From the IMG/VR virus record IMGVR_UViG_3300037692_000066, positions 1 through 46,609 of that record: a stretch of 46,609 bases of DNA. The stretch is one strand, 5' to 3'. Of the stretch, positions 1 to 42,961 are shown in pieces (positions within the stretch are counted from its first letter, which is position 1; every line of letters starts with the position of its first letter). The position numbers and the translations under genes were made by a program. The DNA comes from a virus. Taxonomy: Duplodnaviria > Caudoviricetes. The notes under the pieces were generated by a model that saw only the letters and a list, made by a program, of their open reading frames with translations, had not been told where the DNA came from and searched no databases.

Positions 1-12
1 ATGCGTTCAACC
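1..12. repeat. 12-bp terminal direct repeat, left copy (candidate cohesive end)
   Basis: ATGCGTTCAACC at 1-12 is identical to 46598-46609. It lies about 150 bp upstream of terS in a phage with a GpA-type terminase. Confidence 0.75.
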
Positions 13-47
13 CCCCAAATACACATCCTTAATCCAAAATCCAAAAC

Positions 48-208
48 TGTCTAATCATTTACTTTTCACAATGTCAATAAGTTATAAAAAGAAAAACACA
101 CAATTTTTAAACAAATTAGACACTTTGTTGGCTTTGTCTAAATTTTGTCTAATTTTGTCTAACAAATGCAATACAAAGTATCTAAAATAGCCGAAATGAT
201 GTGTCTAA
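48..208. repeat. Cluster of TGTCTAA motifs, candidate terminase-binding sites
   Basis: TTTGTCTAA at 133-141, 144-152 and 154-162; TGTCTAA at 48-54 and 202-208; inverted TTAGACA at 116-122. Confidence 0.5.
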
Positions 209-774
209 AAGCTCCAACCATACACAAATGGGGGGAGCGCGGAAAGGTATTGATTGAAGGGGGGCTTATAGATTTGGAAATTGAACCTAACAAAACATTC
301 TTTACTGAAAAAGGATTAATCGCCGGATGGCAAAAGTCAGAACCAAAGAAAGACGAGGGTCAAAAATCAGAACAAGGGATAATCGAAATAAAACCAACAA
401 GAGAAACCGGCGCAAACTCTAGGGAAAATGTATCCGAAACACAAAAAAACAATATTCTAAAACGCGCAAAAACAAAAGAGGAGCTAGATTTCCTAAAGCT
501 CAGAAATGAAAAAATACGAGGAGATTTAATCCCAAAAGATTTAGTAGGAAGGGTTACAGCGGAGGTAATTGCTCGTTACAAATCTACATTTGTCCAACAA
601 ACAGACGAATTGATAAGAGATGTTTGCAATGAAAATGGAATATCGAACGAAAAAAGAACCGAACTACTAACTAAACTCACGCTGATTGCAAATGAAAGTT
701 CAAAACGAGCAAACCAGGAGGCTAAAATAGCAATTGAAAACAGCGTATCTGATAGTTTGAGCGCAATGAAATAG
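166..774 (+). CDS. terS: Terminase small subunit (Nu1-like)
   Basis: N-terminal wHTH-like segment, coiled coil ending 'LKLRNEKIRGDLIP', position next to the genome end and upstream of a GpA terminase. Confidence 0.7.
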   Translation: MQYKVSKIAEMMCLKAPTIHKWGERGKVLIEGGLIDLEIEPNKTFFTEKGLIAGWQKSEPKKDEGQKSEQGIIEIKPTRETGANSRENVSETQKNNILKRAKTKEELDFLKLRNEKIRGDLIPKDLVGRVTAEVIARYKSTFVQQTDELIRDVCNENGISNEKRTELLTKLTLIANESSKRANQEAKIAIENSVSDSLSAMK

Positions 775-817
775 CATAACAATTACATAAAAGGATAGAA
801 AACTAATTTTAAATATT

Positions 818-1681
818 ATGAAAATAGGATTGATCGACATAGACGGGAAATACCCAAACTTGGCATTGATGAAAATTAGTGCTTATCATAAATCACTTGG
901 GCATGATGTGGAATTTGCAAAACTCACACACTATGATAAATTGTACATAAGTAAGCTATTCAAGTTTTCTGAAATTAATTACAATACACTGACAACGGCA
1001 AAGGAAATATGTATTGGAGGAAGTGGATATGATTTAAGTGTAAGATTGCCCGAAGAAATAGAATTGCAGGATCCTGATTATTCGATCTATCCAAATTGCA
1101 ATTTTTCACTACAATTTTATTCTCGTGGCTGTATTCGTAAATGCCCTTTTTGTATTGTGCATGAAAAAGAAGGTAAAATTCAATCAGTTAAAAAATTAGA
1201 TTTAAACCCTAAAGGAGAATGGATCGAAGTTTTAGATAATAATTTCTTTGCAAATCCCAATTGGCGTGAAGCAATAGAAGATTTACAGGCTACAAAGCAG
1301 AAAGTAAATTTACATGGCGTAGATGTTAGAATAATGGATGAAGAGCAAGCACAGGCTTTAAATAGCTTAAAACACCACAAGCAAATACACATTGCTTGGG
1401 ATAATCCAAAAGATAACATTTTGCCTAAAATAGAAGCTATGCTGAAATGGATTAAGCCTTACAAAATTATGTGCTATGTGCTTATTGGCTATTGGAGTAC
1501 TCCCGAACAAGATTTACAAAGAATAGAGGCGTTGAGAAAATTAAAAATAGATCCATTTGTTATGCCATTTAATAAATCGGATCCGTACCAAAAAGCATTT
1601 GCAAGATGGGTAAATCACAAGGCAGTTTTTAAAACTTGCTCTTGGGAAGAATATAAGAGCGGAAAGCACAACGCTTTTTAA
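818..1681 (+). CDS. Radical SAM protein (cassette 1 cargo)
   Basis: CxxxCxxC motif RGCIRKCPFC, LDNNF motif, N-terminal 'PNLALMKISAYHK' typical of a phage radical SAM family. Confidence 0.85.
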   Translation: MKIGLIDIDGKYPNLALMKISAYHKSLGHDVEFAKLTHYDKLYISKLFKFSEINYNTLTTAKEICIGGSGYDLSVRLPEEIELQDPDYSIYPNCNFSLQFYSRGCIRKCPFCIVHEKEGKIQSVKKLDLNPKGEWIEVLDNNFFANPNWREAIEDLQATKQKVNLHGVDVRIMDEEQAQALNSLKHHKQIHIAWDNPKDNILPKIEAMLKWIKPYKIMCYVLIGYWSTPEQDLQRIEALRKLKIDPFVMPFNKSDPYQKAFARWVNHKAVFKTCSWEEYKSGKHNAF

Positions 1682-1685
1682 TTAA

Positions 1686-1781
1686 TGGTAACGATGGGGC
1701 TATGTTTTCGGTTGGCTTTGCAGAAATTGTCAAGTTACCGAAAAACTTAATTAGCCAACTGAAATATAGCCGTTGTTAGCA
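1686..1781 (+). mobile_element. attC-like hairpin site 1
   Basis: TGGTAAC, then arms GGCTATGTTTTCGGTTGGC (1698-1716) and GCCAACTGAAATATAGCC (1754-1771), then GTTAGCA (1775). Confidence 0.75.
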
Positions 1782-1867
1782 AATCGGCTTGCTCGTGCGA
1801 TTTTTCAGATAGATACTGGGATAAAAATGGCAGCAAATGCTTAAAATGTGGCAAACACTTTTCTTAG
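1775..1867 (+). pseudogene. Start-less Cys-rich mini-ORF in cassette 2 (VSKSACSCDFSDRYWDKNGSKCLKCGKHFS)
   Basis: Open frame from the GTT at 1775 to TAG at 1865-1867, with a CxC...CxxC pattern. An in-frame TGA lies upstream at 1760-1762. Confidence 0.4.
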
Positions 1868-1877
1868 CAAGCTGTTT

Positions 1878-1930
1878 GCATAACGTTGAGTATAAACCAT
1901 CGTTTTAATGTGGTTTATACATTGTTGTAC
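1878..1930 (+). mobile_element. attC-like hairpin site 2
   Basis: GCATAAC, perfect arms GTATAAACCA (1890-1899) and TGGTTTATAC (1911-1920), then GTTGTAC (1924). Confidence 0.7.
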
Positions 1931-1967
1931 ATCTGTATTGCGGTATTAAAAAACAAAACTTTGAATT

Positions 1968-3062
1968 ATGCACGAACACAGTAATAACATTTTTGAGCGA
2001 GGGCAAATGGCTGACGAAGGAAGCCAAGGAATTAACGTACTTTCTCTTTTTAACGGAATGAGTACAGGACATACCGCGCTTGACAATGTAGGAATCAAAG
2101 TAGATAAATATTACAGTAGCGAGCTGAAACCTTATGCAATAGAATTGACACAATATCACTATCCTGAAACAATACAATTAGGCGATGTAAATAATTGGCA
2201 TGAATGGGATATTGATTGGAAAAGTATTGATTTGCTTTTAAGCGGAAGCCCTTGCAAGGATTTAAGTGGCGCAGGAAAAAGAGCCGGAATATATGGTGAA
2301 AATAGTGGTTTGTTTTGGCGATTCATTGAAATATACGAACACATAAAAGAACTAAACCCAAATATAATTTTCTTCCAGGAAAACGTAGGAAGTGCATCTA
2401 AAACAGATATTGGTATAATGAGTAGGGCAATGGGAATTTATCCTTGTAGAATTAACTCTGAACTTGTTACAGCACAACAACGTGATAGATATTACTGGAC
2501 CAATGCACGAACAAAGCAAACAATGTTTGATACCGTAACAGATATACCATACCCACAGGATAGAGGTATTTTGCTTAAAGATATTATTGAAAATGGTTAT
2601 GTTGACCGAGATAAAGGACGTGCGATTTTAGAAAGTGAAAGCCGACTAAATACCGATATGAAAAAACTATTGAGAAGATACAAAACTACAGGATTTGGAA
2701 ACGTTGTTTATTGTGTTGCTCAAAGAGGACGTGGAAGCGGAAAAGGAAATTACACCCAACAATATGAAGTAAACAAAACACAAAAAAGCAATACCATTAC
2801 TTTAGTAGATAAAGATAATGCTGTATTTAATGGCGAAGAAATAAGACCATTTACAAAGGTTGAACTTTGTAGATTACAAGGCTTTCCGGATAATCATTGT
2901 GATATATTGAGCAGAAATAAAGCAGCTTCTCTTTTAGGCGATGGTTGGACTTTGCCAATTATAGAACACATCTTCCAATATTTACCTTTTAAAAAAGCGA
3001 GGGAAGAAAAAAATGTTATTACGGAATATAAGCACGAACCATTGAATGAAACAGGAACGTAG
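1968..3062 (+). CDS. DNA cytosine-C5 methyltransferase (cassette 3 cargo)
   Basis: Motifs SLFNG (I), GSPC (IV), ENV (VI), QQRDRYYW (VIII), RLQGFP (IX), LGDGW (X). Confidence 0.92.
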   Translation: MHEHSNNIFERGQMADEGSQGINVLSLFNGMSTGHTALDNVGIKVDKYYSSELKPYAIELTQYHYPETIQLGDVNNWHEWDIDWKSIDLLLSGSPCKDLSGAGKRAGIYGENSGLFWRFIEIYEHIKELNPNIIFFQENVGSASKTDIGIMSRAMGIYPCRINSELVTAQQRDRYYWTNARTKQTMFDTVTDIPYPQDRGILLKDIIENGYVDRDKGRAILESESRLNTDMKKLLRRYKTTGFGNVVYCVAQRGRGSGKGNYTQQYEVNKTQKSNTITLVDKDNAVFNGEEIRPFTKVELCRLQGFPDNHCDILSRNKAASLLGDGWTLPIIEHIFQYLPFKKAREEKNVITEYKHEPLNETGT

Positions 3063-3071
3063 CAATATTGT

Positions 3072-3165
3072 GTACAACGGTTGAAGCTATGCACCGTAAA
3101 GCATAGCACAGTGTTTAATTTTAGTACAAACTTATCCGCTTTATGGTGTATAGCTTGTGTTAGCA
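3072..3165 (+). mobile_element. attC-like hairpin site 3
   Basis: GTACAAC, arms AAGCTATGCACCGTAAAGC (3084-3102) and GCTTTATGGTGTATAGCTT (3138-3156), then GTTAGCA (3159). Confidence 0.78.
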
Positions 3166-3179
3166 AACGTTTTTTAATT

Positions 3180-3389
3180 ATGAAAAGAAAATTTTTAAAA
3201 GTAGCAAAAGAATTAGGATTTAAAATTATATCATACAAATCAACCGTATCTGATATGGGATGCAGAATTGTTGATATAACTGTTGAGAAGAATGGTAAAC
3301 AATTTTCTGATGATTGGGGTTACTGGTCATACCAAAAAGAAGATGCACCTGATTACTTTAGAAGAGGGCTTCTTAAATATGTTTGCTAA
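3180..3389 (+). CDS. Hypothetical protein (cassette 4 cargo)
   Basis: ATG at 3180 after an AT-rich leader. The stop TAA lies inside the TAAC core of the next site. Confidence 0.65.
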   Translation: MKRKFLKVAKELGFKIISYKSTVSDMGCRIVDITVEKNGKQFSDDWGYWSYQKEDAPDYFRRGLLKYVC

Positions 3390-3514
3390 CGGTGGTGGTA
3401 TGGTGTCGTAGCGGATTAAAAGCACCAACCTATCGAATAAAATAAAACTTAATACAATGCGAATAACTTCAAATACAGCACAATCCCCGCTATGCACTAT
3501 ACCACGTGTTACTG
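3384..3514 (+). mobile_element. attC-like hairpin site 4
   Basis: TGCTAAC, arms GTGGTATGGTGTCGTAGCGG (3395-3414) and CCGCTATGCACTATACCAC (3487-3505), then GTTACTG (3508). Confidence 0.78.
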
Positions 3515-4251
3515 GCAGTACGGCTTTAACGCACGGTTCTCTTTTCTCTGGGATTGGTGGATTTGAAATTGGGGCAGAAAGAGCTGGAATAAAAACACTT
3601 TGGAATTGTGAATTTGAAAACTACCAACGTAATATTTTAAAGAAAATTGATAAAGATGCAGAACAATATACAGACGTTAGAACCGCAGAAATCAAAAGAT
3701 ATGTGGACATTATTAGTGGAGGATTTCCGTGTCAAGACATTAGCGTTGCAGGAAAAATGGAAGGTATCAAAGGAGAACGCAGTGGGCTTTGGAGTGAAAT
3801 GTGGAGAATTATTAGGGAAATTAGACCTAAATACGTCATCATTGAAAATAGTCCAGCTTTACTTATTCGAGGATTTGAGCAAGTCTTATGCGACCTTTCC
3901 AAAATCGGGTATGATGCAGAATGGCAATGTATATCAAACATTGCTTTTGGATACCCACACAAAAGGGAAAGACTGTACGCTATTGCCTACTCCAACGAAA
4001 TCGGATTACAAAGCGACATTTGCAAACAAAGAGCCACTAACTCGATATTTAGAAAGTGGACATCAAATCAGAATGATGGATATACTTTGTCAAAAAGGGT
4101 TCACGAAATCCCAGCGTGTGATGTTATTAGAAATGGCGATGGGTTTCAAAGCTGGACACACAGAGTTGGAAGTGTCGGAAATTCCGTAAATCCAACATTA
4201 GCACATTATCTATTTGAGTGCATAAAAGTTCATTATGAAGCACTCACGTAG
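3457..4251 (+). CDS. DNA cytosine-C5 methyltransferase, alpha-like subunit (cassette 5 cargo)
   Basis: SLFSGIGG, GGFPCQD, ENS, HKRER and GNSV motifs. Motif IX is not evident in this frame. Confidence 0.9.
   Translation: MRITSNTAQSPLCTIPRVTGSTALTHGSLFSGIGGFEIGAERAGIKTLWNCEFENYQRNILKKIDKDAEQYTDVRTAEIKRYVDIISGGFPCQDISVAGKMEGIKGERSGLWSEMWRIIREIRPKYVIIENSPALLIRGFEQVLCDLSKIGYDAEWQCISNIAFGYPHKRERLYAIAYSNEIGLQSDICKQRATNSIFRKWTSNQNDGYTLSKRVHEIPACDVIRNGDGFQSWTHRVGSVGNSVNPTLAHYLFECIKVHYEALT
3656..4189 (+). CDS. Overlapping alternative-frame methyltransferase beta-like subunit
   Basis: Long nested ORF with 'FPKSGMMQNG', 'LLPTP' and a motif IX-like 'EMAMGFKAGHT'. Same layout as the M.EcoHK31I alpha/beta pair. 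Confidence 0.7.
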   Translation: MQNNIQTLEPQKSKDMWTLLVEDFRVKTLALQEKWKVSKENAVGFGVKCGELLGKLDLNTSSLKIVQLYLFEDLSKSYATFPKSGMMQNGNVYQTLLLDTHTKGKDCTLLPTPTKSDYKATFANKEPLTRYLESGHQIRMMDILCQKGFTKSQRVMLLEMAMGFKAGHTELEVSEIP

Positions 4252-4257
4252 TATTGC

Positions 4258-4381
4258 CAGTAACGGATTAGTGTATGAGCAGTAGCCGAACACAGACCTT
4301 GATTAGAAGTAGAAACTTAAATATTAACAACTGCAATAGTTTAAAACGCCTAACGGCTATTGCTTATACACTTTGTTAGGC
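4258..4381 (+). mobile_element. attC-like hairpin site 5
   Basis: CAGTAAC, arms AGTGTATGAGCAGTAGCCG (4270-4288) and CGGCTATTGCTTATACACT (4354-4372), then GTTAGGC (4375). Confidence 0.78.
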
Positions 4382-4391
4382 AACGTTTATT

Positions 4392-4679
4392 ATGGAAAAA
4401 TTAAACAAATTAATTCAAAGATGTAAGTGTGGTGTTTACCTTACAGTAAATTCACATCGTGATTATTACGAAACGGTAGAACAACATTTTAAATCAAATC
4501 CAATAAATGAAGAAGATTTAGAAGATATTTATAAAGATGTTTATGAAAAAATGAAAGAGTTAAATATTATAATAGAACTACAATATTATCCAGATACACC
4601 AATCGGATTTTATAAAGTTTATCATTATGATTTACAAATGGCAATTGACGAAGCACTGTCTTCTTTAAATGTTGCCTAA
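4392..4679 (+). CDS. Hypothetical protein (cassette 6 cargo)
   Basis: 95-aa ORF. Its stop lies in GTTGCCTAAC, which is complementary to the cassette start GTTAGGCAAC. Confidence 0.75.
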   Translation: MEKLNKLIQRCKCGVYLTVNSHRDYYETVEQHFKSNPINEEDLEDIYKDVYEKMKELNIIIELQYYPDTPIGFYKVYHYDLQMAIDEALSSLNVA

Positions 4680-4692
4680 CTTACTTATATAA
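4666..4692 (+). mobile_element. Truncated attC-like half-site at the array end
   Basis: TAAATGTTGCCTAAC followed by TTACTTATA. No matching right arm or GTT was seen. Confidence 0.5.
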
Positions 4693-4714
4693 CAACTTCA
4701 ATAAATTGAACCTT

Positions 4715-4948
4715 ATGCAACTAACTGATAAAGAGCAAAAAACAATAGATAAGTTTGTTAATTTCATAATGGATAACAATGTATCAAATGAGTTTTTGGT
4801 TCAAATTATTGAACTTGCAGGAGGATTTGTGGATGTCGAAAGCATTCAAGATAGGGCAAAACGCACAGGGCTAAGCTATAATGGAGTGAAAAAAACAAGA
4901 AATATACAAAAGATATTCGGACAAAATTTTGTAATAGGCAAAGAATAA
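4715..4948 (+). CDS. Small hypothetical protein, possible HTH
   Basis: 'SIQDRAKRTGLSYNGVKK' is HTH-like. The stop overlaps the terL start. Confidence 0.6.
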   Translation: MQLTDKEQKTIDKFVNFIMDNNVSNEFLVQIIELAGGFVDVESIQDRAKRTGLSYNGVKKTRNIQKIFGQNFVIGKE

Positions 4949-6954
4949 TGACACACGTAGATTACCTTTTATCTCTTTACGAATCAGAAATCACAACCGA
5001 ACTTCCAAGCGAATGGGCTGCAAATAATCGTATATTGACTTCTGATGTAACAGCCTTTCCCGGCAAAGCATCTTTGGATAGATTTCCATATTGGAAAGAG
5101 CCGCTAGATTTACTATCTCCAGACGACCCGACACACATAATTACAATTATGGGGGGTGCTCAAATTGGAAAATCAACGAATTTTATAGAATCTGGAATAG
5201 GGTATTTAATAAAAAACCATCCCGGAAACATAGTCTTGACTTCTGCGGACAAAGAAATGACCAAAACTCAAATGTCAAAGAAAATTGACAACATGTTAGC
5301 TAATTCAGGATTAAGCTATTTGATACGCCCAAACACCATAAAGAAAAAGAACCTAAAAACAGGGGATAGAGACGACATGAAAGAGTTTCCGGGCGGCTCT
5401 TTAATGGCCCAATCGGTTAAAGCAGTAGATAAAATCAAACAAAACTCTTTTAGATACGGATTTTTTGACGATTTTGAAGCGGCTGTAAGGGGTCAAAAAC
5501 AAGCCGGTGATATTTTAGATTTATTATTTATGCGATTTAATTCGTTTAAAGATAAAATGAAAATATCCATCCTTTCAACTCCGGAGGTAAAACAAAGCTC
5601 TATGATTGAGCCGGCTTTTTTGATGGGGGACCAAAGATATTATAATATGCATTGCCCTAAATGCGGAGATCTTATAAATTATATTTGGAATAAGACCGAG
5701 GAAGAAACAGGCGAGATTGTTGGTGTGTATTTTGAAAAAGATGAAAATAATAAGTTAATAGAAAAAAGCGTAGGATATGTTTGTCAGAAATGCGGGGGTT
5801 TTTTCAAGGAAACGCATAAAAAAGATATGATGAGTTTAGGAAATGGGGCTATTTGGATTCCAACAGCTGAACCAAGCCGACCAGACTGGAAGAGTTATCA
5901 TATTTCAGGTCTTTATTCGCCTCCAGGATTCTTTGATTGGACGCACCACGTCCGCCAATGGATGAATATTTTTCCCGAAAACGGAATAATTCAAGAATCA
6001 AAATTACAAGTTTTTACAAATTTAGTTTTGGGATTGACATACGAAGAAACTGCAAAAAATACAGATGCTTCGCTAATTTCAAGAAACCTAAGAGAATATA
6101 AAATCGGAGTTATACCGGATGAATTTGCCGAAAGTGACGGAAACGGAAAAATAATCATGCTAACTTGTGCTTGTGACTTAAACGGATTTGAGGACGATTG
6201 TAGATTAGATTATGAAATTGTTGCTCACTCGCAAAGCGGCTCTACTTATTCAATCGAACACGGAAGTGTAGGTACGTTTCAAAGAGGAGCTTCAAAAGAA
6301 GGGCGTGAGCTGTGGAATTACTTTGTAGGGCAACCACGTAATGTGTGGGATGTATTCCGTGAAATTGTAAGCCGTGAATTTGAAATGCAATCAGGAAAGA
6401 AAATGCGTATAGTAGCTACCGGAGTAGATAGCGGACACTTTACACAGCATGTCTACCAATTTGTCGAACAAGGCATTCCAAATATGTATGCAGTTTCATT
6501 AAAGGGTGATGCAGACGAAAGAAGCCGACCAACTAGAGCCGACACAATGACGTTTAAAAAATCCCGTGAGCGCTTCGATATGTATCTAGTTCAAACTAAC
6601 CAAATCAAAGACTATGTTTCAGAGTGCATGAAACTAAAACAAATTGACAGCGCACAACCAGCAGGGTTTATGAATTATCCAAGCCCCGAGAATGGACTAT
6701 ACGATTACCGTTATTTTGACCAATACGAAGCAGAAGTAAGGCGACCTGTTAACTCGAAGAATGGAATAGAGATAGCGTATGTTTGGGAGAAAAAAACATC
6801 TCAATCAGCCAACCACTGGTTTGACTGCCGAGTTTACAATATTGCTATTCGTGATATTTTCGCTTATAATCTAGTTAAGGCTTATAATTCAACTGCAAAA
6901 ATCAAAGTAGAGTACACTTGGGCTAATTTTGTGAAATTGATACTAAACCAATAG
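4948..6954 (+). CDS. terL: Terminase large subunit, GpA family
   Basis: Walker A GAQIGKST, Walker B-like FFDDFE, STP motif, CPKC and CQKC, C-terminal NHWFDC nuclease motif. Confidence 0.95.
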   Translation: MTHVDYLLSLYESEITTELPSEWAANNRILTSDVTAFPGKASLDRFPYWKEPLDLLSPDDPTHIITIMGGAQIGKSTNFIESGIGYLIKNHPGNIVLTSADKEMTKTQMSKKIDNMLANSGLSYLIRPNTIKKKNLKTGDRDDMKEFPGGSLMAQSVKAVDKIKQNSFRYGFFDDFEAAVRGQKQAGDILDLLFMRFNSFKDKMKISILSTPEVKQSSMIEPAFLMGDQRYYNMHCPKCGDLINYIWNKTEEETGEIVGVYFEKDENNKLIEKSVGYVCQKCGGFFKETHKKDMMSLGNGAIWIPTAEPSRPDWKSYHISGLYSPPGFFDWTHHVRQWMNIFPENGIIQESKLQVFTNLVLGLTYEETAKNTDASLISRNLREYKIGVIPDEFAESDGNGKIIMLTCACDLNGFEDDCRLDYEIVAHSQSGSTYSIEHGSVGTFQRGASKEGRELWNYFVGQPRNVWDVFREIVSREFEMQSGKKMRIVATGVDSGHFTQHVYQFVEQGIPNMYAVSLKGDADERSRPTRADTMTFKKSRERFDMYLVQTNQIKDYVSECMKLKQIDSAQPAGFMNYPSPENGLYDYRYFDQYEAEVRRPVNSKNGIEIAYVWEKKTSQSANHWFDCRVYNIAIRDIFAYNLVKAYNSTAKIKVEYTWANFVKLILNQ

Positions 6955-7121
6955 CCTAAATATCAGCACTTTACAAATAAATCTACCTTGTAAAAATATA
7001 GAACATATTTGCAGTATTATAACTACCTAATATACAGCTAATTATAAAACTTAATTCCAAACACATTGTAATTATACGTCTTATATTTACTATTCTAAAG
7101 CCGTTAATTATGTTAAATAGG
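6953..7121 (+). other. Candidate Xer (cer/dif-like) recombination site with accessory region, copy 1
   Basis: TTATGTTAAAT at 7108-7118 equals the canonical XerD arm. The ~170 bp region is homologous to 26802-26975. Confidence 0.55.
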
Positions 7122-7246: not shown

Positions 7247-7489
7247 ATGAAAACAACAATGACATTTACAGAAGCTCACATAGTTGAACTAAACAGAATA
7301 ACTACTTTAAACGTATTTGCTTCTAAAATAGCCACTACCATTTTAAGCAAAGATTTTTACTCAGCTTCTTCAAAACAAGTTGATATTTTAAATCAAGTTT
7401 CAGAAATTGAGTTTTATATATCTGACAGTTATTCAAATCAATATATGGAAACTGCACAACAAAGACAACGTAATTTAATGTATTTATAA
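7247..7489 (+). CDS. Hypothetical protein
   Basis: 80-aa ORF after a promoter-like AT-rich region with an A-rich leader. Confidence 0.65.
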   Translation: MKTTMTFTEAHIVELNRITTLNVFASKIATTILSKDFYSASSKQVDILNQVSEIEFYISDSYSNQYMETAQQRQRNLMYL

Positions 7490-7507
7490 TCATAAAAACT
7501 AAGCAAA

Positions 7508-7687
7508 ATGAAAACACTAAAAGAAATTTCAGCAAGCAACCCATCAACTTACCGAGTAATTGACTTACAAGTAAGAAAAGGCGAAGTAAAAGACTGGAGC
7601 GATAAAATAGAGATTATCGTTGATGGGAAATCAAAGTTTTGCACTCGCAGAAATGCTTATAAATTTGGATTAGCAGAAAAAGCCTAA
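7508..7687 (+). CDS. Hypothetical protein (59 aa, not in the ORF track)
   Basis: MKTLKEISASNPST...GLAEKA. Its TAATG overlaps the next start. Confidence 0.6.
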   Translation: MKTLKEISASNPSTYRVIDLQVRKGEVKDWSDKIEIIVDGKSKFCTRRNAYKFGLAEKA

Positions 7688-7851
7688 TGAATCGCCAAAA
7701 CGTAATAGTAGTAATTGCCCCGACTTTAGAAGTTTGGGGTAATTTCAAAAAGATGTGTGAAGCAAAGGGATTGCCGTATCATTCTTTGAAGATGAAAAAG
7801 TTTCCAATTGAGCATAAAGATATTGTAATTTATAAAAAACAAGTGCAATGA
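7687..7851 (+). CDS. Hypothetical protein (54 aa, not in the ORF track)
   Basis: MNRQNVIVVIAPTLEVWGNFKKMC..., with stop/start overlaps on both sides. Confidence 0.6.
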   Translation: MNRQNVIVVIAPTLEVWGNFKKMCEAKGLPYHSLKMKKFPIEHKDIVIYKKQVQ

Positions 7852-8408
7852 GCAAAATAAAATTTGACGAAAGAAATTATCGTATTCACGGAGAAGAAAA
7901 CAAGAAAGTAATTAAAAATTCTTTAGAAGAAAACGGAGCAGGGCGCTCGATTCTCGTTGACAATGATGGAAATATAATTGCAGGAAATGGTGTATTTGAA
8001 CAATGGGGGGGGGGGCGACCTGTCAAAGTAATTGAATCGGACGGAACCGAATTAATTGTAGTTAAAAGAAACGATATTAAGCCCGATGATCCAAGAAGAA
8101 TGAAGCTTGCAATATCCGATAACTCGGCAAATGATTTAAGCGAGTTTGATTTTAACCTAATGCAAGAAGATTTAAAATTACTCTCTTTTGACGAAATTGA
8201 ACTACTCGGACTAGACGCTGAAAAATTCTGTCAAGAAGAAAACGAGCAAAATCCACAACCAAAACTAATTAAGAAAGAAGAAATACGAGCGTTCAAAAAA
8301 ACGCACGTTCTATTTTCTTTTTCACCTGAAGTGTTTTTAAAAATTCAAGAGCTTTTGCAACAAATCAAAGATACGGAGGGCGTAGAGTATGAGCAGGGGA
8401 GCAACTAA
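7848..8408 (+). CDS. ParB/Srx-like N-terminal domain protein
   Basis: 'NYRIH...IKNSLEENGAGRSILVD...IIAGNG...LAISDN' ParB-N pattern. Confidence 0.75.
   Translation: MSKIKFDERNYRIHGEENKKVIKNSLEENGAGRSILVDNDGNIIAGNGVFEQWGGGRPVKVIESDGTELIVVKRNDIKPDDPRRMKLAISDNSANDLSEFDFNLMQEDLKLLSFDEIELLGLDAEKFCQEENEQNPQPKLIKKEEIRAFKKTHVLFSFSPEVFLKIQELLQQIKDTEGVEYEQGSN
8005..8015 (+). repeat. G11 homopolymer tract inside a CDS
   Basis: Eleven consecutive G in an AT-rich genome, in-frame W-G-G-G-R. Confidence 0.9.
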
Positions 8409-8949
8409 AAAAACAAACAATGACCTAAAGCTGCTTATTCATAAAGTGGATTTACGCCTAATGTCTTTGCCGGACAAGCAAGAAATAAATGTGCTCGAAG
8501 CGTTTGGAGGAGAGGGTATTTTGTGGAATGAAGTAAGAAAATTAACTGACCAAAAAATAAACACACTATCAATTGACATAAATACATACGAAAAAATAAA
8601 CCTCAAAGGAGATAATTTGAAGTTTCTCAAATCAATTGACTTAAAGATGTTCGATATTATTGATTTAGATTCGTGGGGAAGTCCCGTTGAACAGCTTCTA
8701 ATTTTAAAGCAAAGAAATTACAAGGGCGTAGTTCATTGCACCTTTATTCAAACTATGTTCGGAGCACTTAATTTAAAAATGCTTTCAAAAATAGGATACC
8801 CGGAAAGAATGGTAAAAAAATGCAGAAGCCTATTTAATAAAAACGGAATGGAAAAAATGAAACAGTTCCTTGCTATTGAATTTGAAGTTTCTGAAATTAT
8901 GATTTTTTCACATAAAAAGAAAAACTATTTTTACTTTATTCTTTCATAA
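8389..8949 (+). CDS. Putative SAM-dependent methyltransferase-fold protein
   Basis: VLEAFGGEG (motif I-like) and FDIIDLDSWGSP (DLDPYG-like motif IV). Confidence 0.65.
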   Translation: MSRGATKKTNNDLKLLIHKVDLRLMSLPDKQEINVLEAFGGEGILWNEVRKLTDQKINTLSIDINTYEKINLKGDNLKFLKSIDLKMFDIIDLDSWGSPVEQLLILKQRNYKGVVHCTFIQTMFGALNLKMLSKIGYPERMVKKCRSLFNKNGMEKMKQFLAIEFEVSEIMIFSHKKKNYFYFILS

Positions 8950-8997
8950 GTCATTGATAATGACTATCTTTATTATTATTAATTAAAAAATAAACCT

Positions 8998-9777
8998 ATG
9001 AACATTTACGAACCAGCAGGCAGGGCAAGAGAATACAGCCCACTAGCTCTGAACTATTTCAAAGGATGTGACCACGCATGTAAGTATTGCTACGTGCCAA
9101 ACATGTTAACTCGTTTTAATTCAAATTACAATCACGGAACTGTGATTAACCCAGTTGATTTTTCCAAGTTGGAAGCATCAGCCAAAAAAATGCAAGGATG
9201 TGGAAAACAAATCTTATTATCATTCACAGGCGACCCATACTGCAATTCTGAAAATGGGGAAACTCGCAAAGTACTTGAAATCTTAAATAAGTACAATCAT
9301 AAAGTGGCAATTCTAACAAAACAGCCAGATAAGGCCATGAAAGATTTAGATTTGTTTTTAAAATTTGGAGATAGATTTAAAATAGGCTCTACGCTGACAT
9401 TTGACAATGAAAAGGATTCTTTAGAATGGGAGAAAGGCGCATCGCTTCCAATTGAAAGGGTAGATGCATTACGAAAATTTGCAGAACTAGGAATAAAAAC
9501 GTGGGCTAGTTTTGAGCCTGTAATTATACCCGAGCAATCACTTTCTTTGCTTTTAACCGTTTCTGAATTTATTGACCATGTTAAAATCGGGAAAATTAAT
9601 AATTACAAAGGGATTGACAAGCAAATAGACTGGGGAAAATTCATCTTTGATTCCGTTCGCATACTTCGTGATGCGGAAATGAATGATAGATTTTACATCA
9701 AGAAAGACTTGTTAATTCACAATACCGGAGTTTATTTAAGCGGAAACGAAACAAACGAAGATTTTTTAAATTTATAA
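8998..9777 (+). CDS. Radical SAM protein (spore photoproduct lyase-like clade)
   Basis: LNYFKGCDHACKYCY, GDPY, ILTK and SFEPV motifs. Confidence 0.85.
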   Translation: MNIYEPAGRAREYSPLALNYFKGCDHACKYCYVPNMLTRFNSNYNHGTVINPVDFSKLEASAKKMQGCGKQILLSFTGDPYCNSENGETRKVLEILNKYNHKVAILTKQPDKAMKDLDLFLKFGDRFKIGSTLTFDNEKDSLEWEKGASLPIERVDALRKFAELGIKTWASFEPVIIPEQSLSLLLTVSEFIDHVKIGKINNYKGIDKQIDWGKFIFDSVRILRDAEMNDRFYIKKDLLIHNTGVYLSGNETNEDFLNL

Positions 9778-36931: not shown

Positions 36932-37705
36932 ATGAGTACGGAAATCGCACGTTTTGAACCGCAAAACATCAGAAATGAAGTAGTAAAACAAATGGAAGAT
37001 ATGCAAGCATCCAAGTTCGTAAAATTGCCGGAAGACTTTAAAGAAAGTGCATTTTTTGCCATTGAAAAACTAGCAAGCTTAGAAGACATTGAAAAAGTGC
37101 CGGCCATTGGAATAACAAAGGCGTTAATTACCATGTTTTCCAATAAGTTAGATTTTAGAAAAAATCACTGCTACTTTTTTGTTCAAAATGACAAAAACAC
37201 CGGAAAATCTCTACGTTTCGGATGGCGGTATCAAGGGCTTATTTCAGTCGCTAAATTACAATGTGATGTGGATGATGTAATCCCATGTCTAGTTTATGAA
37301 GGTGATGTTTTTGAATCTCACTATGAATATGGGGCCTTAATTATCGACAAACATACGCCTACTTTTGAGGGTAAAATTAAAGGTGGTTATTGTGTTGTTT
37401 CGTTCACCAATAAATCAATTTTAGTAAAGTATTATACTAAGGCAGAACTTGACATGCGCCGTGAAAAATCAAAGGCAAAATCAGGCAGTTTTTGGGCGTG
37501 GGAACGTGAAATGTACGAAAAAACATTAATTAATGCAACCTTAAAAAGAATCATAGAAACAAGCCCGGACATAGAGGCCTCTAATCTTTATGATGAACCG
37601 GAGGCTATCGAACATAGGCAAATTGTCGACACTGAAGTAATCCAACAGGACGAGCCGGAAAGCAAGACCGTGGGGCAGCCTTCTGAAAAATTTGAAATGA
37701 AATGA
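36932..37705 (+). CDS. recT: RecT/Red-beta-like ssDNA annealing protein
   Basis: 'KNHCYF', 'YQG', 'VYEGDVF', 'IKGGYC', 'W...EMYEKTLI', acidic tail. Confidence 0.85.
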   Translation: MSTEIARFEPQNIRNEVVKQMEDMQASKFVKLPEDFKESAFFAIEKLASLEDIEKVPAIGITKALITMFSNKLDFRKNHCYFFVQNDKNTGKSLRFGWRYQGLISVAKLQCDVDDVIPCLVYEGDVFESHYEYGALIIDKHTPTFEGKIKGGYCVVSFTNKSILVKYYTKAELDMRREKSKAKSGSFWAWEREMYEKTLINATLKRIIETSPDIEASNLYDEPEAIEHRQIVDTEVIQQDEPESKTVGQPSEKFEMK

Positions 37706-40780: not shown

Positions 40781-42961
40781 ATGGAATATAACGACTTTAT
40801 AAAGAGCAAAGAAAAAAGTATCATTTTAAGTGGATTTGATATTGAAGAAAACAAACTTAATTCCATGCTTTTTGATTTTCAAAAGTTTACAGTTAAGAGA
40901 GCTTTAAAGGCTGGTAAGTATGCTATTTTTGCTGATACTGGTCAAGGTAAAACACCTATGCAACTAGAGATTGCAAATCAAGTATATTTACATACTAAAA
41001 AAGAAGTGCTTATATTAGCTCCTTTGGCTGTAACTGGGCAAACAATAGAACAAGGAATTAAGTTTAATGTAGATATTCAAAGATTAAAAGGCAATATTCA
41101 AATCGCTAACTACGAACAAATAGATAATATAGATTGTGATAAATACGGCTGTATTATTTTAGATGAAAGTTCAGTATTAAAAAATGAAACTGGCAAATAT
41201 AGAAATTTACTTATTGAAAGATTTAAAAATGCGCCCTACAAGTTTTGTTTTTCTGCAACACCAAGCCCAAACGACCCTATGGAGTTGGGCAATCATTCTG
41301 AATTTTTAGATATTATGGGATTCAATGAAATGCTTGCAATGTTCTTTGTACATGATGCAGGAGAAACTCAAAAATGGAGATTAAAAGGTCATGCAGTTAA
41401 TAAGTTTTATGAATTTGTATCAACTTGGGCTATAATGTATTCACACCCAAAAGATATTGGTTTTGATATGAAAGGTTTTGATTTGCCACCTTTAGAAATA
41501 ATTGAAAAACAAGTATCAACAGAACTCCCACAAGGCATGCTATTTTCGGGGCTTGCAGTAAATGCAACCGATTATAATTCGAGCCTTAGAGAAACAGAAA
41601 AGGAACGAATACAACAAACTATTGAAATAGTTAATTCAATAGGAAAAGATGAACCTATTATTATATGGACTAAGCAAAACGATGAGGCTAAGAATATTTA
41701 TAATCAGCTAAAAGAATTAGGATATGACTGTAGAAATGTTCAAGGTTCTGATTCAAATGATAAAAAAGAAAGTGATTTATTAGGGTTCGGAAAAAATGAG
41801 TTTCAAATTCTTATTACAAAACAATCAATAGCAAGCCAGGGGCTTAATTATCAAAATTGCGCTTATCAAATATTTAATTCAGTAGATTTTAGTTTTGAGC
41901 AAAGTTATCAAGCTATGAGGCGTTCATGGCGTTTCGGACAAAAAAGGAAAGTAACATGTTATATGATAACTACCGATAGAATGATTAATGTAATTAAGAT
42001 ACAACAAGACAAACACCTATCTTTTAAAACAATGCAAACAGAAATGACAAAAGCAGTTAATAAAAACCTTAATAATCAAATAACTAATTATATGACAAAT
42101 TCAGAAGATGTAAAAACAGAAAACTATCATTTAATGCGTGGGGATTGTGTTGAAAAGTCAAAGGAACTTGCTGATAATTCAGCAGATTTAGTTGTATTTT
42201 CTCCACCATTTAGCGAACTATATACATATTCTAGTCATGTTGAGGATATGGGTAATTCACTTAATTACGACCAATTCGAGCAACATTTTAAATACCTTAT
42301 TCCAGAATTAAAACGGGTGCTTAAAGACGGTCGTATTTGTGCCATTCATTGCATGGATTTACCAATACAAAAGGGAAAAGAAGGATATATTGGTTTGCGT
42401 GATTTCTCTGGCATGCTTATTAAATGGTTTCAAGATTGCGGATTTATTTATCATTCAAGAGCTACAATTTGGAAAGACCCAGTTATTGAAATGCAAAGAA
42501 CAAAGGCATTAGGTTTACTACATAAACAAGTAAAAAAAGACAGCTCCATGTCAAGAGTTGGAATACCTGACTATATTTTATTTTTCAGAAACGAAGGAGA
42601 TAACCAGGTACCAATTACTAATATAAATATACCAGTTGATTTATGGCAAAAGATAGCTAGTCCGGTTTGGTATGATATTAATTATTCAAGAACACTTAAT
42701 TATCGTGAAGGTAGAGCAAATGAAGACGAGAAGCATATTTGCCCTTTACAATTAGATACTATTGAAAGATGTATATTACTTTATTCAAACGAAGGAGAAA
42801 CAGTATTTAGTCCTTTTGGGGGTATTGGGTCAGAAGGTTATCAAGCTCTTAAAATGGGTCGCAAAAGTATATCTATTGAGTTAAAAGAAAGCTACTTTGA
42901 ATTAAATAAACGTAATCATAATTCAGCAGAAGAAGAAAAAGGACAATTGCAATTGTTTTAA
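40781..42961 (+). CDS. SF2/SNF2-like helicase fused to N4/N6 DNA methyltransferase
   Basis: DTGQGKT, LDES, SATP, GLN and RSWRFGQ helicase motifs, then FSPPF, HICPLQL and PFGGIGS methyltransferase motifs. Confidence 0.92.
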   Translation: MEYNDFIKSKEKSIILSGFDIEENKLNSMLFDFQKFTVKRALKAGKYAIFADTGQGKTPMQLEIANQVYLHTKKEVLILAPLAVTGQTIEQGIKFNVDIQRLKGNIQIANYEQIDNIDCDKYGCIILDESSVLKNETGKYRNLLIERFKNAPYKFCFSATPSPNDPMELGNHSEFLDIMGFNEMLAMFFVHDAGETQKWRLKGHAVNKFYEFVSTWAIMYSHPKDIGFDMKGFDLPPLEIIEKQVSTELPQGMLFSGLAVNATDYNSSLRETEKERIQQTIEIVNSIGKDEPIIIWTKQNDEAKNIYNQLKELGYDCRNVQGSDSNDKKESDLLGFGKNEFQILITKQSIASQGLNYQNCAYQIFNSVDFSFEQSYQAMRRSWRFGQKRKVTCYMITTDRMINVIKIQQDKHLSFKTMQTEMTKAVNKNLNNQITNYMTNSEDVKTENYHLMRGDCVEKSKELADNSADLVVFSPPFSELYTYSSHVEDMGNSLNYDQFEQHFKYLIPELKRVLKDGRICAIHCMDLPIQKGKEGYIGLRDFSGMLIKWFQDCGFIYHSRATIWKDPVIEMQRTKALGLLHKQVKKDSSMSRVGIPDYILFFRNEGDNQVPITNINIPVDLWQKIASPVWYDINYSRTLNYREGRANEDEKHICPLQLDTIERCILLYSNEGETVFSPFGGIGSEGYQALKMGRKSISIELKESYFELNKRNHNSAEEEKGQLQLF

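Follow-up and report, generated by a model that had tools for sequence, protein, structure and literature searches.

An array of integron-type cassettes with reversed gene polarity and a palindromic downstream dock between the terminase genes of a tailed phage

The virus record IMGVR_UViG_3300037692_000066 (Duplodnaviria; Caudoviricetes), analysed here over positions 1–46,609 (the window), carries between its terminase genes a group of methylase and other genes separated by hairpins, and the question raised by this locus is what kind of element it is and how its genes come and go. The small-subunit gene (terS; 166–774, plus strand; phrog_57, E 9e-5), which adjoins the large-subunit gene in relatives, forms the fixed 5' flank and the large-subunit gene (terL, gpA type; 4948–6954, plus strand; PF05876 and PF20454) forms the fixed 3' flank. 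The record is 92% complete by CheckV estimate and, among annotated phages, those closest to it in terL are Flavobacterium phages (36%). A preliminary description made from the sequence had proposed an integrase-less set of single-gene mobile cassettes with attC-like sites, added one at a time by an enzyme acting in trans. We find an array of five bounded units and read it, with a probability of about three in four, as exchangeable integron-type cassettes whose genes face a fixed downstream dock and which are likely to be recombined by a host IntI-like recombinase lacking the I2 domain. The labels R', R'', I2 and attI follow the sections that we draw on of PMC9892861, PMC5027507, PMC9024848, PMC4889954, PMC8618304 and PMC11602168 or general usage.

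The five hairpin sites lie on the plus strand at 1686–1781 (site 1, the distal array end, with AAC at 1690–1692 and GTT at 1775–1777), 1878–1930 (site 2, of a short class), 3072–3165 (site 3), 3384–3514 (site 4, which contains the ATG of the next gene at 3457) and 4258–4381 (site 5, 82% identical to a site of Cellulophaga phage phi18:3), and share the layout AAC-G-N5–8-TAT...ATA-N4–6-GTT. A covariance model trained on 62 phage sites of about 120 nt returned exactly these five matches at E ≤ 1 on both strands of the 46,609 bases, all inside one 2.7 kb block, which confirms the sites and layout of the preliminary description. Sites 1, 2 and 3, which were outside the training set, score E values of 3e-8, 8e-5 and 4e-9, respectively. 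In the 62-site alignment 92.3% of the stem cells are paired, with 326 compensatory cells (64.6% and 99 in shuffles), and the covariation is 0.657 (0.156 shuffled, 0.10–0.14 slid); pairing is inflated near the TAT box, where the scan that chose these sites demanded it, and the inner stem columns, outside that requirement, covary too. Two G·T wobbles are conserved on the sense strand (37 and 52 of 62 sites). The alignment contains no conserved extrahelical base or bulge, as judged from the MAFFT alignment and the supplied structure, and among the window sites a bulge is seen in site 1 alone.

The ends of the sites match across genes. The observed pairing of each GTT end with the AAC end of the next site is the best of 720 possible assignments, and every GTT end matches the next AAC best. 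Over 156 phage sites, pairing of the seven bases past the core reaches 2.7 of 7 positions within a site, compared with 4.75 of 7 between a site and the one after it (n = 69), so that the earlier claim that each GTT flank belongs with the following site and not its own stands.

Delimited by these ends, the array is five units, all on the plus strand. Unit 1 (1775–1884), a body of 110 nt defined by its end match and three-frame translation, contains a cysteine-rich frame of 30 codons (1775–1867, with CxC and CxxC motifs) that begins at GTT and has no in-frame start; site 1 supplies no in-frame ATG. The unit is likely to be silent and may have been silenced by hairpin exchange or by a small mutation. 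Unit 2 (1924–3078) is a cassette shell around a C5 DNA methyltransferase gene (1968–3062; PF00145), with an inner inverted repeat at 1983–2003 and 2997–3020. Unit 3 (3159–3390, by end match) encodes a 69-residue protein (3180–3389) with no Pfam or PHROG family, in a frame that is open from a TTG at 3081 within site 3. Unit 4 (3508–4264) is the body of a second C5 DNA methyltransferase (PF00145), whose open reading frame (ORF; 3457–4251) starts inside site 4. Unit 5 (4375–4680, by end match) is dock-proximal and encodes a 95-residue protein (4392–4679) with no Pfam or PHROG family and no close relative, the only similarity in viral contigs being one weak match of 27 residues. Two cargo stop codons, at 3387–3389 and at 4677–4679 in the dock core, are the TAA of a TAAC core, as had been noticed. 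Units are not always one gene: unit 1 has no start, and an array in a relative (L016, below) has a two-gene unit. The extent of the array is also changed from the preliminary description, which had included the first gene and missed the dock palindrome and the small gene behind it. This first gene, encoding a radical S-adenosylmethionine (SAM) domain protein (818–1681, plus strand; phrog_9298, E 6e-102), is not a bounded cassette: the AAC end of site 1 has no upstream GTT partner, and a same-strand site call lies beside radical SAM homologues in two of 80 loci. The gene is missing from the empty interval of L109, a relative described below, although it has no cassette ends, and an AAC at 778–780, after the terS stop codon, has no hairpin.

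Which way do the genes point relative to the sites? The preliminary description assumed crossover at the sense-strand G^TT, with the hairpin following its gene. The likely polarity is the opposite, with the sense-strand GTT on the R'' side and crossover at the sense-strand AAC. Five observations lead to this view: the folding bias, the cargo strand in phages compared with chromosomes, start codons within hairpins, a hairpin-less dock at the 3' end and, in L016, a first AAC core formed by the terS stop codon. The gene-sense strand is the better folder at 140 of the 156 phage sites, by a mean of −2.15 kcal/mol; in attC sites it is the G:T-rich, better-folding bottom strand that recombines, cut at AAC, with a difference of −2.12 kcal/mol (Nivina et al., 2016; PMC5027507, in the sections consulted). 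With the strand of the site model as reference, 144 of 156 phage sites have their neighbouring gene on that strand (two have it on the other, ten have none), but 83 of 106 chromosomal sites have it on the other strand (12 on the same, 11 with none); therefore, the chromosomal arrays have canonical polarity and the phage cargo is reversed. At 65 of the 156 phage sites an ATG frame begins in the hairpin and passes the GTT by at least 25 codons, a count made without a shuffle control, and GTT is a valine codon in 39 of 68 hairpin-started frames. The array itself is asymmetric, with the AAC end of site 1 unpartnered upstream and no hairpin after the last AAC. In a class of sites 180–200 nt long (L280, L281, L286, L361 and L004 7663–7857), the loop encodes about 45–55 N-terminal codons of the downstream gene.

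These observations bear directly on a canonical CALIN (cluster of attC sites lacking an integron integrase), in which the hairpin would follow its gene, crossover would occur at the sense-strand G^TT and cassettes would be captured from host integrons by an ordinary IntI. Ends that match on circularization fit either polarity, two stops do fall in TAAC and IntI genes with I2 occur in some Bacteroidota genomes. The array has no entry GTT upstream and has a hairpin-less AAC dock downstream, the sense strand is the favoured fold, chromosomal cargo lies on the other strand and no site of the window type is found at three of four IntI loci. Together with the assay considered next, these points largely refute a canonical CALIN, which we regard as highly improbable.

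Qi et al. (2023; PMC9892861, in the part drawn on here) assayed with IntI1 two sequences of Polaribacter phage P12002L that had been detected with HattCI. Their attC1 failed; attC2 recombined at G|TT and gave no top-strand recombinants. Our site model finds seven full-length matches in P12002L on the gene strand (E ≤ 0.0016) with filters off and none with default filters, so that the site tallies for genomes given below are lower bounds. The published attC1 is an internal hairpin written in gene-sense polarity, whose failure with IntI1 speaks against the canonical reading; attC2, compared by eye, agrees at every letter with the reverse complement of the 3' array end, where there is no hairpin. 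The G|TT crossover in attC2 would then be the sense-strand AAC of the P12002L dock, and the published assay fits the reversed polarity. Two arrays of P12002L (L615; 29171–29239 and about 37200–37265) end in the same 69 nt dock copy, which has no palindrome. The phage CALINs of that report resemble the window in that virulent phages have attC-like sites in clusters without an integrase, with DNA methylases in the cargo. The same source takes the P12002L sites as ordinary attC sites, two of them in divergent directions, whereas the window has reversed-polarity hairpins and a 3' dock. With five sites and no recombinase the window is a CALIN in a loose sense, if its variant sites are counted as attC.

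The attI-like dock (4675–4711) consists of an AAC core (4678–4680), a 16 nt spacer with a TAT box and a TTCAA-N4-TTGAA palindrome (4697–4710), without a hairpin. In 54 of 59 viral loci with a homologue of the small gene that follows it, AAC lies 15–17 nt ahead of the palindrome; of the remaining five, two are cut by contig ends, two were mis-anchored by the script and one has no AAC. Same-strand site calls around the docks number 98 in 186 kb upstream and four in 267 kb downstream (opposite-strand calls, seven and five), counted without collapsing overlaps or near-duplicates. In 20 of 33 loci, at least five of seven bases ahead of the dock AAC are complementary to the closest GTT flank upstream, compared with 5.9% of shuffled pairs. 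With the dock motif alone as the query, the small gene lies behind 37 of 66 distinct viral matches and, in bacterial genomes, at 11 of 109 distinct matches, which are mostly chance. Some viral contigs have two or more palindromic docks (L359/L360, L326/L327 and L338/L343), and some docks precede a helicase or another gene instead of the small gene.

The hairpins could also be selfish repeats of the repetitive extragenic palindromic (REP) or miniature inverted-repeat transposable element (MITE) kind, or RNA regulatory elements, with gene turnover by homologous or illegitimate recombination. Similar hairpins do occur between unrelated flanks, hairpins do carry start codons, and MITEs common to Bacteroidota and their phages are reported in the portion of PMC11602168 consulted. 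Such repeats are dispersed, whereas the window sites form a single block and site calls at phage docks cluster on the upstream side; the complementary ends are specific to each unit and span its gene, recombinases adjoin the chromosomal arrays, breakpoints fall at the cores and Rfam gave no match near the gathering score over 1–7000, only two weak chance matches. We give this explanation a very slim chance.

Behind the dock lies a gene for a 77-residue protein (4715–4948, plus strand), with 282 representatives at E ≤ 0.001. The protein has no Pfam, PHROG or NCBIfam match and no Foldseek match at E ≤ 0.001, and a tblastn search with its homologue P0122 found nothing among annotated phages; its atlas neighbours carry HTH_17. 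The predicted model (predicted local distance difference test score, pLDDT, 95.6) has an N-terminal two-helix dimer domain and a C-terminal helix-turn-helix similar to those of excisionases and MerR. The C-terminal 39–55 residues align with RdfS (PDB 8dgl), Pukovnik Xis (4j2n), Tn916 Xis (1y6u) and BldC (6amk) with Z scores of 3.3, 3.2, 2.3 and 2.7 and root-mean-square deviations of 5.8, 2.0, 3.4 and 2.1, respectively; the best two, over 53 and 39 aligned residues, are both weak. The likeness to these excisionases, or recombination directionality factors, and to BldC is thus a weak one of the C-terminal half, and the predicted N-terminal dimer domain is an addition that they do not have. A homodimer is predicted with a score of 0.78 (best control 0.00), with runs agreeing on at least 95% of contacts at pLDDT ≥ 87; the mark for this score was reached by 20 of 30 solved pairs and one of 23 single chains. 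The modelled dimer suits the palindrome. That it binds there as an excisionase-like helper or gate for a borrowed recombinase, and may repress its own gene, we hold to be nearly as probable as not.

The genes beside the dock module are unrelated phage genes, and the module occurs at many unrelated positions in phage genomes; the dock and small gene therefore form a portable module. Of 111 ORFs that follow the small gene in its loci, 93 were searched, with near-duplicate loci, overlapping frames and one terL left out, and none of the 93 is a tyrosine recombinase. Among 301 genomes the small gene occurs in one, at the very locus used to centre the search. The combination of palindromic dock and small gene represents one of several types of dock, because the dock of P12002L has neither a palindrome nor a small-gene match.

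The enzyme has to be sought elsewhere. The record itself yielded no PF00589 tyrosine recombinase candidate among its 58 ORFs by Pfam or in a six-frame search, in keeping with the earlier suggestion of an enzyme in trans. The search of Bacteroidota genomes with a covariance model that had been proposed was productive: the site model matches 80 of 151 genomes of this phylum, that of a Draconibacterium genome, one of 101 genomes of the phylum of a Psychromonas genome and, weakly, one of five mixed controls. The match in the Psychromonas phylum comprises six strong site calls on one contig (G223:C8, 335–71385); this could reflect transfer of an array, a contig of phage origin or an error in binning. 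We took 20 chromosomal arrays, selected by site clusters alone. An intact PF00589 gene lies on the dock side of nine of them, its distance from the last site ranging from 0.1 to about 11 kb, and a tenth array has a broken one; three of the nine share the position and direction of the small gene of the phage and six face the other way. All ten array-adjacent recombinases that were tested score 171.5–221 bits, under the TIGR02249 cut-off of 265, and the six that were aligned lack the I2 insertion of about 35 residues carried by four IntI proteins. A quick tree places the array recombinases together with IntI and separates them from XerC/D (support 96); IntI forms a subclade within this group (99). 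Judged on sequence, a relative of IntI without I2 describes them better than Xer does, and from their position we infer that they are the cognate enzymes of the arrays. The recombinases that co-occur with chromosomal arrays, which the preliminary description had wished to identify, would thus be of this kind. The chromosomal entry sites share the first dozen bases of the phage dock, and that of L551 is identical to the window over 14 nt. In phage L047 an array-type recombinase, on a long branch, takes the place of the small gene, and the cargo is reversed. One candidate was set aside: gp037 of phi18:3 (428 residues, beside its array) has a weak NCBIfam match and was missed by the array-recombinase profile. 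A regular expression for tyrosine recombinases found none in 40 regions although PF00589 then found them, and was dropped.

Do cassettes move? The terL relatives were gathered by an alignment scan (a scan with a single terL protein gave three distant loci), and 48 loci have both terS and terL, duplicates between two collections included; the gap is at most 400 nt in 35 of them. The closest terL relative (L109, 85.5% in terL) has an empty interval of 88 nt, L016 (54%) has an independent array with other cargo at the same place, and L096 and L047 have arrays downstream of terL. Insertion of exchangeable integron-type cassettes between terS and terL is supported, as had been claimed, although the single-gene description does not hold for every unit. 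In the proposed comparison of relatives, breakpoints fall at the cores. L558 and L559 also contain the methylase body of unit 4, at 94 and 92% identity, and there the likeness stops at GTT and just past AAC; in four of six more distant homologous loci that were inspected there are no such body ends. A contig of metagenome run X6 departs from the window one base past the AAC at 4264, and a 338 nt contig of run X3 is identical over 4677–4868 and differs immediately upstream, where it has a different first cassette.

The X3 contig bears on a frozen relic, in which dock, small gene and cassettes would have arrived as one block, with the small gene a self-regulating repressor or hitch-hiker and no current traffic. 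Consistent with a relic are the lack of a recombinase in cis, the start-less unit 1, the occurrence of the module at many unrelated phage positions and the docks that precede other genes. It is opposed by the recent exchange that the X3 contig indicates, by the retention of all five stems and by the fixed spacing between AAC and palindrome. We consider a relic unlikely. Searches for circles and deletion joints in runs X1–X4 and X6 found none, and are uninformative either way since contigs drop rare forms; among 105 bodies compared, the shared ones were only overlapping or same-context pairs.

Exchange may also take place within units. In L343 the ends of the unit 2 shell, at 80–83% identity, surround an N6/N4 methylase in place of the C5 methylase; the two methylases are alike only in the first 18 and the last few dozen residues, and the switch falls at the inner inverted repeat. 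This repeat, with a GCG-N-GG motif, brackets cargo in about seven loci (among them L343 4700–5804; L047 6880–7230 and 7330–7810; L096 6330–7030; L567 about 2440–3250), and in L047 and L567 the unit that it bounds sits in a hairpin loop. Its left motif alone is not enriched overall (30 in 371 kb upstream, compared with 26 in 449 kb downstream). The inner repeat may be a second layer of capture.

The hairpins around the unit 4 body point to a further complication. Each of the three upstream hairpins of this body (in the window, L558 and L559) supplies its own in-frame ATG, and the hairpins differ on both sides; the addition of one cassette at a time by a single crossover, as first proposed, is therefore too simple. 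A two-sided modular exchange would extend the preferred reading: hairpins and bodies would be separate modules, either strand could be cut and bodies would be swapped or inverted between hairpins, which could explain how the phage cargo came to be turned round. Besides the unit 4 body, it is favoured by several hairpin pairs that are 92–97% identical with neither flank in common, by the core of site 2, which occurs with other flanks on both sides in three metagenome runs (X1, X3 and X4; loose ends at 1889 and 1920), and by the report, in the sections consulted, that top-strand recombination is favoured when extrahelical bases are lost (Nivina et al., 2016; PMC5027507). Opposed to it are the strong strand bias, the lack of any body in both orientations among the 105 compared (few are shared at all) and five similar-hairpin pairs that share ten of ten downstream bases, as no different-context pair does upstream; cassettes that arose independently from one body would look no different. 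We regard two-sided exchange as a serious possibility that falls somewhat short of even odds. Either both cores are used, as the missing extrahelical bases would allow, or cassettes are often rebuilt from parts.

Several further points weigh against the preferred reading of exchangeable cassettes served by a host recombinase, in addition to the selection of the aligned sites for pairing. The unit 4 body follows a different hairpin in each of its three loci and also precedes a different one in each, and of 41 similar-hairpin pairs, 17 are more alike on the downstream flank and 21 on the upstream flank; hairpins therefore do not simply travel with the downstream gene. The switch at the dock comes from the single 338 nt contig, at a depth of 3.4. 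Same-strand genes are found at 12 of the 106 chromosomal sites, 11 of the 20 chromosomal regions have no intact recombinase in the stretch fetched, and a frameshifted IntI with I2 (L540 10233–11333) lies 3.7 kb past the distal site of one chromosomal array. Nor is the small gene universal: none was found in P12002L, and 29 of the 66 distinct viral dock-motif matches lack it; the fold matches of its product do not exceed Z = 3.3. IntI1 is a foreign enzyme in the P12002L assay, and the identification of attC2 as a dock is ours.

What is observed comprises the sites and their covarying stem, cargo genes in reversed polarity, a conserved dock and the small gene that goes with it, and unit exchange at the cores; a mechanism can be sketched around them. 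The sense strand of a cassette circle would fold, and the host I2-less recombinase would cut the folded strand at AAC and join this AAC to the dock. New units would enter at 4678–4680 with their genes facing the dock, pushing older ones towards terS. The hairpin ahead of a gene would often give it its start codon, so that hairpin exchange could turn a gene off. The cargo would presumably be expressed by read-through from the packaging operon, and the methylases would protect against host restriction. The phage is thus likely to gain and swap DNA-methylase genes through a recombinase borrowed from its host, and cargo so rich in methylases suggests that the packaging module houses a locus for rapid counter-restriction.

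The array works like an integron cassette array and departs from one in its intI, I2, extrahelical bases and gene polarity. With integrons (PMC4889954 and PMC5027507, in the sections used) it shares AAC/GTT cores, an unpaired spacer, better predicted folding of the G:T-rich strand and matched ends specific to each cassette, as well as a putative hairpin-less entry site at the array end, beside which the chromosomal arrays have a recombinase. Unlike in integrons, there is no intI in cis and no conserved extrahelical base, the genes are reversed with starts inside hairpins, the entry site is downstream of the genes and the small helix-turn-helix gene occupies the place of the integrase. Unlike attC sites, phage sites of the window type are not 3' of their own gene (reversed in 144 of 156), and unlike IntI, the array recombinases fall below the TIGR02249 cut-off and have no I2. 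The Bacteroidota chromosomal arrays share the site model and the first dozen dock bases with the window but have canonical polarity and a recombinase in cis, neither of which holds for the window. The sections of the sources consulted state that cassettes pointing towards the promoter have never been seen (Nivina et al., 2016; PMC5027507), that it is not known by what mechanism new cassettes are created (Cury et al., 2016; PMC4889954) and, for IntegronFinder 2, name one complete integron in Bacteroidetes proper. We found no published description of the reversed polarity, the dock palindrome and its module or I2-less array recombinases in a search that left most subscription journals outside.

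The same type of folded site thus occurs in over half of the Bacteroidota genomes searched (80 of 151), beside recombinases that lack an IntI-defining domain, and in phages it is used with the genes in the opposite polarity. As material for study the window provides a defined dock, its five hairpins, a protein that is a candidate helper and a shell with different inner genes in two phages. It opens three questions: by what means an integrase that lacks I2 reads a folded site, in what way a phage comes to use the recombinase of its host and by which route genes get into cassettes. A wider proposal, which we hold tentatively and with more doubt than belief, is that Bacteroidota phages run a cassette economy of their own on a host recombinase lineage missed by integron screens: the dock and its excisionase-like dimer would recruit or gate an I2-less relative of IntI, and cassettes in phage polarity would be assembled from reusable parts, namely exchangeable start-codon hairpins and shells that take unrelated genes in frame between inner inverted repeats. 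If this is true, phage shells and hairpins would be a visible route of cassette genesis.

A scan for a Pc-type promoter gave 16 sigma-70-like sites compared with 17.9 expected, although the scan was not fitted to Bacteroidota promoters and the genes face the dock. Elsewhere in the window, a second accessory block at 7247–9777, between terL and the portal gene, has no hairpin sites and contains a ParB-like gene (7848–8408), a weak methyltransferase match (8389–8949) and a second radical SAM gene (8998–9777). A third methylase lies outside the array, as an N6/N4 DNA methylase fused to a helicase (40781–42961). In the array past terL in L096, one cassette contains a long non-coding stretch with a tRNA-like segment (5240–5560), and one hairpin in L096 is repeated at 97% identity.

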